Origin: Candidatus Pampinifervens yunnanense
Lineage (GTDB): Bacteria; Aquificota; Aquificia; Aquificales; Aquificaceae
Direction of reading: 5' to 3'
Assembly (NCBI GenBank): GCA_037926845.1
Contig: JAXSPD010000059.1
Span: 1-9,456 of the forward strand
DNA length: 9,456 nt
Shown: positions 7,378 to 9,056 of the stretch, one piece after another
Layout of the letters: the number at the start of each line of letters is the position of its first letter
Numbering within the stretch: position 1 is the first letter of the stretch
Notes under the pieces: generated by a model
Databases searched by the model: none
Seen by the model: the letters and a program-made list of their open reading frames with translations, nothing else
What the model was told of the DNA's origin: nothing
Translations under genes and position numbers: made by a program

Positions 7378-7614
7378 TTATATGTCTAAGCTTTTTAGCA
7401 GTATTTTAAATAGTGCTCCCTGTAGTAGTGCTATTTCTTGGAGTTCCAGCTTCATCGCTATTCGGTTTTGCTTCTCTCCCTTTTTTCCCTGCTCAATTGC
7501 TATAAATACTTTCCCGTTGCTGTTTTCTACTGTGAGCTTTTTCCACTCTTCGGTTTTGTCGTTGTACCTGAAAAACTCTATCCTTTTTCCGTTTCCGTTT
7601 TTAGTTTGTTCCAT
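7378..7614 (-). CDS. Small protein, 78 aa; possible PC4/YdbC-like ssDNA-binding fold (weak)
   Basis: Minus-strand ATG at 7614 with AAGGAGG (complement of 7622-7628) 7 nt upstream. It overlaps the end of the HU/IHF-like gene by 14 nt. SNGKVFIAIEQGKKGEKQNRIAMKLELQEIALLQGAL resembles the PC4 core pattern (FKGKVLIDIRE...KGISLNPEQWSQLKEQI) by eye only. Confidence 0.55.
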   Translation of the reverse strand: MEQTKNGNGKRIEFFRYNDKTEEWKKLTVENSNGKVFIAIEQGKKGEKQNRIAMKLELQEIALLQGALFKILLKSLDI

Positions 7615-9056
7615 TGCTTCTCCTCCTTGCTTGGATGTGGTTCTTCACTCTCACTTTTCCGTTTTTGAGCTTCCATGTGGCTAATCCTCTTAGCTCTATC
7701 CTTGCTCCCTTGAGTACCTCTCTCCTGATTGTCTCTATGAGTGCCTCCAGTATCTCCCTCGCTTGCTTCTCGTTGTAGCCTGTTTCTTCTGCCAGTAGTT
7801 TTATTATTGTCTGTCTGTTGTGCTTCATGGTTTGCCTCCTTTTGGAAAATTTCTTGGTGGAAATAAACTTGATGCTCCGCACCCTCCATGGGTTCGGAAA
7901 TATCTTTACACTCCACCAGTTTTAGCATCTCTTTATATATCTCAAGGTTTTCTACTGTTCTGGATAGTTCAAAGGCTTTTATTTTGTTTAGTTGTGAGCT
8001 TCTTAGTCTTTCTATGTTCTTCTCAATCTCGCTAATCTTAAACTTCAGGACTTCTTTATAATGTAGCCTGTGCTTTAGTGCGTAATATACAAGTTCAAAG
8101 AGCCGTGAGAGAAATTTGATATATCTCTTTTTAAAGTTCCATCCGCCGTAAACTCGTGCCTTGAGTATGTCCGTAAGTGGTAGGTAGTAGCTGTTTTTTC
8201 TGTGTGCCAGCCTGAAGAGGTTGAAAAACTTTCCCTTTATTTCTGTCCTTGCTTTATCTGTTTTCACTTTGTTTATGCTGGTTCCTGACTGCTCTCTTAT
8301 GGCTCCCATCAATGTGTAGCCTATGAAGGCATCTACTGAGGGAAAGTTCTTGATATCCCAATAGTAGGCTATGAGGGTTGCTATGAGTATGTCTCCTCCA
8401 AAGTATGGGAAAGATGATAGTATGGGATAATCTGGGTGGTTTCTGGCTATGCTTTTTAGCTCCTCCTCCAGCAGTTTCTGGCTTTCAATGGTGGTTTTAA
8501 GCTTTTTTAGTTCGCTGAGTGCTAACATGCTAAGTGCGTGAGGAGTGTTTTTTAGCTCTGCCTCAATCTCAGTTAAAGACTTTAGAAACTTGTCTCTTTT
8601 GAGGTTGTAGTATTCTTTGTATGGAAAGATTATAGCCGTGTATTGCATGAGTCTGTTCATTGTTCTTGTGAGGTCTTTTTCGTTCCGGATGTGCTGTCTT
8701 ACTATAGCCCTTAGGTTTATCATTGTAGGAAAAAAGGGTTTACAGTATTTTCTTTTTGTTTTGTCAAGGAAAAAAAGCCTAAGGTAATAGGCATCTATAA
8801 AATCATCTTTCCTTCTATCCCTGCCGTGTCTGAATGCTTTGAATTCTTTTCCATCTGCTATGTAAACCTTTGCTCCTGCATCTTCAAAAATGTAAGCCCA
8901 TCTGATGCCATAGGCTCCTGTCTGCTCTAAAACTACCGTGCTTTCTTTTACAAGCTCTTTTAGTAGCTCCAAGTCTTCATCTGTAATCTTGTATTTTTCC
9001 TTTCCATCGTGTAAAATAATAAAGTCCTTCGCTACATCACAGCCGTAAACTTTCAT
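7578..9056 (-). CDS. IS110/Piv-family DEDD (RuvC-like) transposase/recombinase with long C-terminal extension
   Basis: Minus-strand ATG at 9056 with AGGAGG (complement of 9065-9070) 8 nt upstream. The N-terminal DEDD-type motifs are MKVYGCDVAK, VVLEQTGAYG and RRKDDFIDAYYL. The C-terminal IS110 domain pattern is LSSFPYFGGDILIATLIAYYWDIKNFPSVDAFIGYTLMGAIREQSGTS...FKKRYIKFLSRLFELVYYALK. The recognisable core ends near aa 335. The last roughly 83 codons overlap the HU/IHF-like gene out of frame and look like low-complexity read-through. Confidence 0.8.
   Translation of the reverse strand: MKVYGCDVAKDFIILHDGKEKYKITDEDLELLKELVKESTVVLEQTGAYGIRWAYIFEDAGAKVYIADGKEFKAFRHGRDRRKDDFIDAYYLRLFFLDKTKRKYCKPFFPTMINLRAIVRQHIRNEKDLTRTMNRLMQYTAIIFPYKEYYNLKRDKFLKSLTEIEAELKNTPHALSMLALSELKKLKTTIESQKLLEEELKSIARNHPDYPILSSFPYFGGDILIATLIAYYWDIKNFPSVDAFIGYTLMGAIREQSGTSINKVKTDKARTEIKGKFFNLFRLAHRKNSYYLPLTDILKARVYGGWNFKKRYIKFLSRLFELVYYALKHRLHYKEVLKFKISEIEKNIERLRSSQLNKIKAFELSRTVENLEIYKEMLKLVECKDISEPMEGAEHQVYFHQEIFQKEANHEAQQTDNNKTTGRRNRLQREASEGDTGGTHRDNQERGTQGSKDRAKRISHMEAQKRKSESEEPHPSKEEKQWNKLKTETEKG
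7601..7828 (-). CDS. Short HU/IHF-family DNA-binding (architectural) protein, 75 aa
   Basis: Minus-strand ATG at 7828 with AGGAGG (complement of 7835-7840) 6 nt upstream. MKHNRQTIIKLLAEETGYNEKQAREILEALIETIRREVLKGARIELRGLATWKLK matches the HU/IHF helix-helix-beta pattern. Compare HBsu [52 protein letters not shown]. The beta-arm is short and lacks the usual RNPxTG segment. The track's longer 7882 start is a GTG with no RBS. Confidence 0.65.
   Translation of the reverse strand: MKHNRQTIIKLLAEETGYNEKQAREILEALIETIRREVLKGARIELRGLATWKLKNGKVRVKNHIQARRRSNGTN

Follow-up and report, generated by a model that had tools for sequence, protein, structure and literature searches.

How does a recombinase of the IS110 family come to stand at the end of a set of filamentous-phage genes, what does it move, and how is its target site chosen? 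This question is raised by contig JAXSPD010000059.1 of Candidatus Pampinifervens yunnanense (Aquificota; Aquificaceae), the whole of which, 9,456 bp, was analysed and is called the window below. Its minus strand carries three co-oriented open reading frames (ORFs), each preceded by an AGGAGG-type ribosome-binding site (RBS), which encode a 492-aa recombinase, a 75-aa HU/IHF-like protein, and a 78-aa protein; all the recognisable phage genes (Rep, Zot) are on the plus strand. A preliminary description of this DNA had given the same arrangement, which is recovered here, and had read the three genes as the integration module of the phage. Comparison with related loci (numbered L001 and so on) indicates that the window quite probably holds an inovirus-like prophage, lying between positions 408 and 9195, which integrates via its IS110-family recombinase, itself programmed by an RNA of ~92 nt, at a TATAAT box.

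Minimal insertion sequences (IS) are the form in which RNA-guided IS110 "bridge" recombinases are known, and these enzymes are being engineered for the insertion of large DNA. In filamentous phages (Neisseria Nf, Thermus phiOH16), IS110-type genes have been taken to encode integrases, for which no targeting mechanism is known. The present locus joins both lines, the comparative evidence suggesting that a 92-nt RNA specifies the ends and the sites of an 8.8-kb phage and of sister elements of 3–12 kb.

The Recombinase and the Boundaries of the Element

The 492-aa protein matches the Pfam family DEDD_Tnp_IS110 (PF01548) with 41.4 bits for a cutoff of 29 (E=1.6e-10). A profile of 32 homologues matches ISCro4 (9t56, 5e-12) and IS621 (8wt6, 5e-11) in both domains; it covers IS621/ISCro4 residues 55–157 and also ISCro4 residues 174–268, including the SG motif (independent E-value 9e-4). 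In the 32 sequences, D7, E44, D85, and S257 are invariant and D88 is conserved in at least 90%; S257-G258 is likewise invariant among homologues. The residues D7/E44/D85/D88 may be equivalent to D11/E60/D102/D105 of IS621. Homologues form 88 clusters, nearly all of 460–520 aa, from Aquificota-type genomes and hot-spring or vent metagenomes, and the recombinase represents a divergent IS110 subfamily.

The conserved termini of the element were derived by comparing L015 with L011/L012 and with the window. They consist of a left end (LE) motif, A-TTAT-CTTACA, and a right end (RE) motif, AGT-TTAT-A, both also present in homologous elements. L011/L012 had been considered as a circle junction (attP); this was rejected, since two host flanks are connected there across the N-gap of a scaffold; the sequence is still useful for defining the ends. 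In the window, the left boundary falls between the flanking A (9196) and the core TTAT (9195..9192), followed by CTTACA, and the right boundary between the core (411..408) and the A of the other flank (407). The host genes for thiol peroxidase (tpx) and alanine racemase (alr) lie directly outside both ends, and the target is the intergenic region between these two divergent genes. The guide RNA and the left end of the element are contained in the 165 nt that separate alr from the recombinase ATG; in L001, L003, and L015 the homologous recombinases are also ~100–200 nt from a divergently oriented host gene. The 9-mer TTATAATCC, which combines the right-end core with the ATCC flank, is present once in the whole window. 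No tRNA was found in the window, so that this is not a tRNA-targeting integrase.

Since the two ends enclose every phage gene, the element is ~8.79 kb long and contains all of them, and the unit of recombination appears to be the whole 8.8-kb inovirus-like element and not a 1.7-kb IS. Sizes in the family range from 3.2 to 11.6 kb and depart from the minimal IS110 format (one gene and non-coding ends, ~1.2–1.6 kb). The preliminary description had kept open that a separate IS110-like IS of ~1.8 kb, carrying the HU-like and 78-aa genes as passengers, landed beside an unrelated inovirus prophage. Ordinary IS110 elements are indeed single-gene, and the related L005/L006-type subgroup is small (3.2–3.7 kb) and occurs in several copies (335 sequences make up the P0017 cluster). 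However, no right-end motif follows the 78-aa gene, and the sole TTATA+ATCC match to the right guide of the RNA described below (411..403) is located beyond all phage genes, where it abuts tpx. In addition, the sister contig L083 retains the recombinase-HU-78aa-Zot arrangement, and in L001, L008, L015, and L052 the same recombinase/RNA system bounds 7–12 kb of cargo. An independent IS is thus extremely improbable. The view of the recombinase as the integration module of the phage is, for its part, upheld by ends that enclose all phage genes and by a guide RNA that matches host DNA at both of them.

Structure of the Guide RNA

The RNA, whose type is that of a bridge RNA's target-binding loop or a seekRNA, is found in the family on the sense strand, either just upstream of the recombinase gene, as here, or just upstream of the junction. 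In the window (9166..9075), its minimum free energy is −42 kcal/mol (z=−6.3). A first alignment of 31 homologous regions yielded helices P1/P2, an internal loop, and helix P3, with compensatory changes in 14 of the 17 pairs, and the covariance model made from it detects 65 copies across 77 sources, all of them on the same strand as the recombinase. In the alignment of the 65 copies, pairing holds for 93% of cells and, in shuffles, for 71.5%; double changes occur in 15/17 pairs. On each of the five covariation measures, none of 500 shuffles reaches the observed value, and sliding the partner columns makes the signal collapse. G-U pairs are common in the helices, for instance 56/58 at one position. 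Whereas the helices are conserved in shape, the loop is hypervariable, at two places only, GA-N5-AUUA(U) on the 5′ side and AG-N4-UAUAAU on the 3′ side. The order of these two segments, with the bottom-strand match 5′ of the top-strand match, is the same in all 65 aligned RNAs.

Public gene calls carry this region as a hypothetical ORF of 63–68 aa (L001 9813-10004, L003 9829-10020, L081 6983-7189). In L015 (18218-18313) and L011 (1925-2018), the homologous RNA lies upstream of the crossover site, so that integration leaves it ~8 kb away from the recombinase gene, at the right end, which parallels the difference in RNA position between IS110 and IS1111. L001, L003, L008, and L080, but not the window, have a conserved GAGAUA(A/G) motif just 3′ of the P1 stem. 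Its extended form in L001, AGAUAAGC, shows complementarity to GC-TTAT-CT, the donor junction, and the motif is possibly the vestige of a donor guide. A search for donor guides returned only short complementarities of 6–8 nt, inconsistent between loci (AGAUAAGC in L001, UAAGCCU in L008).

The Loop of the RNA Matches the DNA Flanking the Element

In the window, the left guide is identical to the host flank 9201..9197 at 5/5 positions and the right guide is the complement of the host flank 406..403 at 4/4. The left guide (N5) was compared with the left flank of its own element in 40 distinct integrated loci, with 1548 non-self pairs and 10,000 permutations as controls. The match is perfect in 22 of the 40 loci and reaches at least 4/5 in 25, against 5 perfect matches among the 1548 non-self pairs, and no permutation exceeds 6 perfect matches.

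For the right guide, each locus was searched for TTATA followed by the reverse complement of N4, also a 9-mer. Right ends were found at 8789 bp in the window, 11,569 bp in L001, 7,200 bp in L008, 9,418 bp in L052, and 3,202 bp in L006, and further ones in L029 (7,357 bp, a dimer), L073 (1,540 bp, a deletion derivative), and L011/12. In L006, L029, L073, L052, and L011/12, the match is directly preceded by an RE sequence that recurs in other contigs within the subgroup. For the window, L001, and L008, the support is a −35 box at conserved spacing, to which the window and L001 add host DNA directly beyond. The search gave a single wrong-side match, about the chance expectation. What looks like natural reprogramming of the guides is seen between close relatives.

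One could suppose that the hairpin works as folded DNA, the single-stranded DNA (ssDNA) genome of the phage forming an attP-like hairpin as in CTXphi/XerCD, and that the identities between loop and flank reflect DNA-DNA pairing. The cargo is that of an ssDNA (inovirus-like) replicon and the structure could form in DNA too. Yet the structure is conserved in elements devoid of inovirus genes (L001, the 3.2-kb L006 type) and is always placed on the sense strand of the recombinase, immediately upstream of either the gene or the junction. Moreover, its frequent G-U pairs would not be tolerated in the complementary DNA strand, and RNA guides with the same strand order are known from this family of enzymes (PMC11187229, PMC11208160). 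A DNA hairpin is therefore very improbable, and an RNA guide is retained here.

Recombination Sites and a Putative Promoter Split Between the Two Ends

Many contigs of relatives contain RE-TTAT-LE junctions with no A before the core, which correspond to circles or tandem copies. Tandem arrays or concatemers have periods of 3744 bp (L030/L053), 8128 bp (L049), and 6939 bp (L081), and single junctions are found in L041-47, L050, L051, L057, L072, L075, and L080. The tandem copies are located in L030 (2541, 6285), L053, L049 (6971, 15099), L081 (52, 6991), and L029 (124, 3797). Identity between the two copies in L030 is only 93.8%, so that this array, at least, did not arise as an artefact of assembly. 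These junctions define attP and the shared 4-nt core.

The empty site is provided by L077, which starts with GTGCTACT-ATTATA-CCATATCC (GCTACT-ATTATA-CCAT), that is, the left and right flanks of L029 joined through ATTATA. Empty site and junctions together give attB as N5-A-TTAT-A-N4, attL as N5-A-TTAT-CTTACA, and attR as TTAT-A-N4 preceded by the right end, with no duplication. On the opposite strand, ATTATA reads TATAAT, and a long divergent ORF starts 1–38 nt from the junction (median ~9–10) in 34 of 43 distinct insertion sites. Hence, the targets are −10-like boxes directly upstream of host genes. By the same rule, attB of the window would be AATTGTCCTTTT-ATTATA-ATCCATGC (the target is likewise written AATTGTCCTTTT-ATTATA-ATCCATGCTG), and the ATG of alr is 17 nt from this presumed TATAAT box.

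The two ends also carry the halves of a putative promoter. The −10-like TACAAT of the left end is conserved in relatives as TACAGT/TACATT, and a −35-like TTGACA is present in the right end. In the circle, the order would be TTGACA, 11 nt, TTAT, CT, TACAAT, which corresponds to a 17-nt spacer. L001 and L080 (both TTGACT/TACAGT), L008 (TTGCGT/TACATT), and L081 (TTGCCT/TACAGT) display the same geometry. In the L052 and L006 subgroups, no good −35 box is found at the expected spacing, so that a split promoter can be clearly recognised only in the clade that bears the HU-like gene, in which the RE-LE junction may have promoter activity.

A Small Gene Nested in the 3′ Part of the Recombinase Gene

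The whole 75-aa gene is contained in the 492-aa ORF and read in the +1 frame; both are overlapped by the 78-aa ORF, which uses the +2 frame. The HU-like protein is recognised by Bac_DNA_binding (44.7 bits for a cutoff of 22.4), over profile positions 2–64 of 90 only. The NCBIfam IHF/HU models score far under their cutoffs, and the AlphaFold2 (AF2) model is confident only for two helices. Its only database relative is a 75-aa entry of nr, "HU family DNA-binding protein" of Hydrogenobacter thermophilus, with 85% identity. Overprinted HU-like genes characterise one clade (window, L001, L003, L004, L007, L008, L009, L035, L079); 5 of 6 relatives tested score above the Pfam cutoff, and these versions are full-length (86–101 aa).

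In most subgroups, a +1-frame gene with its own RBS overlaps the final ~200–250 nt of the recombinase ORF. In L010, L011, L013, L015, and L043-L052, it encodes a secreted "EC-x-NG-x-W" protein of 68–84 aa, and the L005 group has no overlapping gene. The secreted protein has a signal peptide and a later cysteine (EC-x-NG-x-W...C) and shares the frame and position that the HU-like gene has elsewhere (L010 9287-9514, L011 3453-3698, L015 11220-11468, L043-L052). In L003 and L008, a member of the same protein family is placed after the HU-like gene.

The conserved part of the recombinase ends at about residue 385–387, at a C-x-D-I-S motif, and is followed by a variable tail (~105 aa in the window, 65–110 aa in the family) that overlaps the HU-like gene. 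One explanation would be that the recombinase ends near residue 390, the tail being an untranslated accident, or that recombinase and HU-like protein are joined by programmed frameshifting; the lack of conservation of the tail and the +1 frame of the HU-like ORF go in this direction. However, the tail frame is open in all ~50 intact homologues, and none of them has a stop close to residue 390; in the L005 subgroup, which lacks a nested gene, the C-terminus of the tail is basic and conserved. The HU-like ORF also has its own AGGAGG and ATG. Finally, in 17 loci the nested gene was reshuffled synonymously and the share of trials that keep the recombinase frame open was recorded. It is 1.5–5% for the HU type (3.1% in the window) and up to 43% for the secreted-protein type, whereas the real frame is open in 17/17 loci. 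Accordingly, a termination near residue 390 or a frameshift fusion is improbable, and both frames of this ~230-nt dual-coding overlap, which is conserved, appear to be maintained.

The HU-like gene had been described as a dedicated partner of the recombinase. This is supported in part only: the overprinted gene is conserved in one clade, and other clades have a small secreted protein or nothing in its place. Being missing from several clades, the HU-like gene cannot be essential to the chemistry, and it is a clade-specific accessory.

The 78-aa protein has two homologues only, both within the window's own phage lineage, and is a lineage-specific extra. It matches no sequence family. Its AF2 model (predicted local distance difference test 83) has four or five strands, followed by a helix at the C-terminus. 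In the PDB, it best matches Borrelia Pur-alpha (E=0.046, template-modelling score [TM] 0.51), a PC4-like protein of phage T5, and MRP1/2, all of them weakly (E=0.05–0.25, TM ~0.5), and a BFVD fold search returned uncharacterised proteins only. The predicted beta-beta-beta-beta-alpha fold weakly resembles single-strand binders of the PUR/PC4/Whirly type. The preliminary description had seen in it a possible ssDNA-binding protein. The idea that HU75 (the 75-aa protein) and the 78-aa ORF are one frameshift-split gene came from a short stretch, "F-x-RYND", that recalls the C-terminal end of the HU-like protein of L007. It was rejected as unsupported, hhalign detecting nothing in common between nested HU-like proteins and the 78-aa ORF; the split arrangement is also conserved in L079, whose recombinase is 75% identical.

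Proposed Mechanism

In the model proposed here, the RNA encoded just upstream of the recombinase gene would fold into a stem-internal loop-stem, bind the recombinase, and program it. The 5′ side of the loop (N5 + AUUAU) would correspond to the target top-strand sequence and pair with the bottom strand, and the 3′ side (N4 + UAUAAU) would be complementary to the target top strand. Together, the two sides would specify N5-A-TTAT-A-N4 as attB, which is a TATAAT box lying upstream of a host gene at a distance of a few to ~40 nt; in the window this gene is alr. Recombination would take place at the 4-nt TTAT core common to attB and to the RE-LE junction of the circular (replicative) form, and would produce attL (CTTTT-A-TTAT-CTTACA) and attR (AGT-TTAT-A-ATCC). 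Circularisation would bring the −35 box of the right end 17 nt from the −10 box of the left end, and the resulting promoter would turn on the guide RNA, the recombinase, and the HU-like gene in the excised form only, as in IS110 elements. HU and IHF are architectural cofactors of site-specific recombination, as IHF is for lambda Int, and the HU/IHF-like protein may similarly bend DNA for synapsis or donor recognition. The functional trio would thus be made up of recombinase, guide RNA, and, in this clade, the HU-like protein.

This trio modifies the three-part module of the preliminary description. The recombinase and, within the clade, the HU-like gene keep their places, and the same three genes are indeed found in related phages (L079, L083/L084) at other sites. 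The 78-aa ORF drops out, for want of conservation outside the window's lineage, and the guide RNA takes its place. That description had named guide RNAs as background and had not looked for one; the nesting of the 75-aa gene and the non-conserved tail had also escaped it.

Several observations weigh against the model. Of the profile searches suggested earlier, those with DEDD_Tnp_IS110 and Bac_DNA_binding pass their cutoffs, and that with Transposase_20 (PF02371) does not (17.1 bits for a cutoff of 21.3). For the latter profile, many homologues have a precomputed match. The NCBIfam model "IS110 family RNA-guided transposase" (NF033542) is matched with E=1.7e-25 and 89.9 bits, under its equivalog cutoff of 140. 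Rfam 15 holds no family for the RNA and returned a single spurious miRNA match (E=0.027). In the 165-nt left end, no second conserved loop was found that could bind the donor, so that recognition of the RE-LE junction, apart from the shared TTAT, is unexplained by the RNA. Eighteen of the 40 left guides fall short of a perfect match to their own flank. Several of the mismatched flanks fit the guide of another locus, that of L010 fitting the L020 flank (same genome) and that of L024 the L023/L028 flank (same metagenome), which fits action in trans but does not prove it. The absence of the HU-like gene from several clades is a further point, as is the fact that attB and the circular form of the window are deduced from relatives and not observed.

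Phage Genes, Sister Phages, and Other Features of the Window

The cargo comprises the gene set expected of an inovirus, namely a rolling-circle Rep, a Zot/pI-type ATPase, and small coat-like ORFs, all co-oriented (Table 1). The coat and adsorption proteins have no family matches and are assigned from size and position only. Two ORFs of 45–47 aa (1847-1990 and 2297-2434, plus strand), also devoid of family matches, have the hydrophobic core and basic C-terminus typical of inovirus major/minor coat proteins. Between the stop codons of Zot and of the 78-aa ORF, a G+C-rich non-coding gap (6955-7377) contains a perfect 15-bp inverted repeat (7103-7117/7154-7168) nested in an imperfect one of 32 nt (7045-7076/7199-7230). 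The gap could be the origin/packaging hairpin region of the phage or a bidirectional terminator.

Table 1. Coordinates of the features of the window (att, attachment site).
Feature	Position	Strand	Basis or remark
Host thiol peroxidase (tpx), N-terminal part, right flank	1..324	-	NCBIfam thiol peroxidase, E=5e-37
Right target flank ATCC	403..406	-	Complementary to right guide GGAU of the RNA
attR junction: core TTAT 411..408 and target-derived A 407	407..411	-	
Integrated element, ~8.79 kb	408..9195	-	Inovirus-like prophage between two TTAT core copies
Inovirus-like cargo genes	422..6954	+	Rep, Zot-like assembly ATPase, small membrane/coat-like ORFs, 724-aa ORF between them
Rep	422..1423	+	Pfam REP_ORF2-G2P, E=4.6e-15
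TTGACA, −35-like hexamer in right end, 11 nt from core	423..428	-	Sequence reading
Zot-like assembly ATPase	5893..6954	+	Pfam Zot, 6.6e-21; PHROGs Zot-like, 5e-38
78-aa ORF, lineage-specific	7378..7614	-	RBS CAAGGAGGAGAAGCA-ATG
IS110-family DEDD+Ser recombinase, 492 aa	7578..9056	-	RBS AAAAAGGAGGAAGGAGAG-ATG
HU/IHF-like gene, 75 aa	7601..7828	-	RBS AAAAGGAGGCAAACC-ATG; Pfam Bac_DNA_binding, E=1.6e-11
Guide RNA, 92 nt, P1-P2-internal loop-P3	9075..9166	-	Fold and covariance
Loop 3′ side: right guide GGAU 9108..9105 and constant UAUAAU 9104..9099	9099..9108	-	Complementary to target top strand ATTATA-ATCC
Loop 5′ side: left guide CUUUU 9139..9135 and constant AUUAU 9134..9130	9130..9139	-	Identical to attL top strand
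TACAAT, −10-like hexamer in conserved left-end terminus CTTACAAT	9184..9189	-	Sequence reading
attL junction: flank CTTTT 9201..9197, target-derived A 9196, core TTAT 9195..9192	9192..9201	-	
Host alanine racemase (alr), N-terminal part, left flank	9214..9456	+	NCBIfam alr, E=1.3e-17

Sister phages L079 and L083/L084 have the recombinase, HU-like, and 78-aa genes in common with the window, at 77–84% DNA identity, and are integrated at three different sites, other than that of the window. The left guide matches its own flank at 5/5 in L084 (ACCAT) and at 4/5 in L079 (AUAUC); for L083, the common gene order is the only evidence. In one sister prophage (L083, at about 175-180; L084), the recombinase gene has an in-frame TGA at an almost invariant Trp (GIR-W-A), which gives pieces of 58 and 348 aa, and this is probably a decaying copy. 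A tblastn search of the related loci with the window cargo proteins, made before L083 was added, gave no homologues, so that the window cargo is not common to those elements; L083 does carry the Zot region.

A different cargo is found in L001 (10001-21360), an 11.6-kb element bounded by the same recombinase/RNA system. Its genes (SLT, Peptidase_M15_3, and transglutaminase-core genes, together with an HTH_17 gene and a truncated gene for a tyrosine integrase) make the cargo a different kind of mobile element or a phage remnant. A tblastn search of 50,697 phage records with the recombinase and Rep gave no match, a scan of IMG/VR no relatives, and exact-sequence look-ups of the window recombinase, HU75, and P0091 no match.

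Relationships with Known Systems

IS110-family genes at the end of a filamentous provirus, opposite Rep and assumed to be integrases, are described for Thermus phiOH16, Zuza8, and Zuza27 (PMC11437467) and, in the account of Kawai 2005 that PMC7058167 cites, for Neisseria Nf/MDAphi. The window has the same layout, and tblastn detects no sequence similarity to the deposited phages. The targets also differ, Nf using the dRS3 repeat with a CT core and the present element a TATAAT box beside a gene start. No literature was found that assigns a guide RNA to Neisseria Nf or Thermus filamentous phages, or that links bridge RNA or seekRNA with prophages or filamentous phages, a 2026 review being silent on the latter.

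Compared with lambda Int/IHF, the likeness is that a small HU-fold protein is encoded, and probably co-expressed, with the recombinase. Unlike IHF, it is encoded by the element, is truncated (75 aa, without the C-terminal third), and occupies a frame overlapping the recombinase gene.

If the model is confirmed, this family would provide a natural proof that IS110 enzymes move multi-kilobase cargo, as well as thermostable orthologues with a very short guide and a 4-nt core, and a candidate protein cofactor. It would also offer a testable explanation of site choice by IS110-bearing inoviruses, with an unusual class of target, the −10 box next to gene starts. A wider generalisation can be put forward only tentatively and is rather unlikely to hold in full. 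Phages and small integrative elements of thermophiles (Aquificota) would use a single-loop guide RNA and an IS110-type recombinase as a programmable integrase, retargeted to different promoter −10 boxes by changes in nine loop nucleotides. The donor (attP) would be recognised by protein, through the extra C-terminal region of the enzyme and/or the overprinted HU-like factor, and not by a second RNA loop.

The closest relationships are with the RNA-guided IS110 systems. In IS621/IS110, the bridge RNA has a target loop and a donor loop and the core is CT (PMC11208160; Durrant et al., 2024; structures 8wt6-8wt9), and a promoter split across the right and left ends has been described for IS110 elements (PMC11208160). 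The present system shares with IS621 a DEDD RuvC-like domain with, probably, a Ser-containing Tnp domain, a guide RNA in the non-coding left end upstream of the gene, and an internal loop whose sides read the two target sides on opposite strands, as in a target-binding loop. A circular intermediate and a promoter split between the two ends would be further common features. In contrast to IS621, a single programmable loop and no donor-binding loop are found, a 4-nt core (TTAT, within ATTATA) stands in place of the CT dinucleotide, and the enzyme has ~490 aa, with a coiled-coil-like extension and a disordered tail, instead of ~330 aa. Moreover, the elements carry cargo of 1.7–10 kb, which in one case is a whole inovirus; one clade has an HU-like gene overprinted on the 3′ end of the recombinase gene, and in the L015/L011 type the RNA is on the other side of the crossover, ending at the right end 8 kb from the gene.

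The seekRNAs of IS110-type elements (ISEc21; Siddiquee et al., 2024) measure 58–74 nt and have the bottom-strand match 5′ of the top-strand match (PMC11187229). The RNA of the window resembles them as a short single-module RNA upstream of tnp, with the same order of matches, matches that overlap at the insertion point, and natural reprogramming between relatives; it has a seekRNA/target-loop organisation. It differs from the ISEc21 seekRNA in belonging to another family by structure and sequence (neither Rfam nor sequence comparison gave a similarity), in guides of 5 + 4 variable nucleotides and a constant ATTATA, and in a natural cargo of several kilobases. Thus, with its cargo, its single-loop guide, its TTAT core, its −10-box targets, and its overprinted accessory gene, the system described here appears to be a new form of RNA-guided IS110 recombination.

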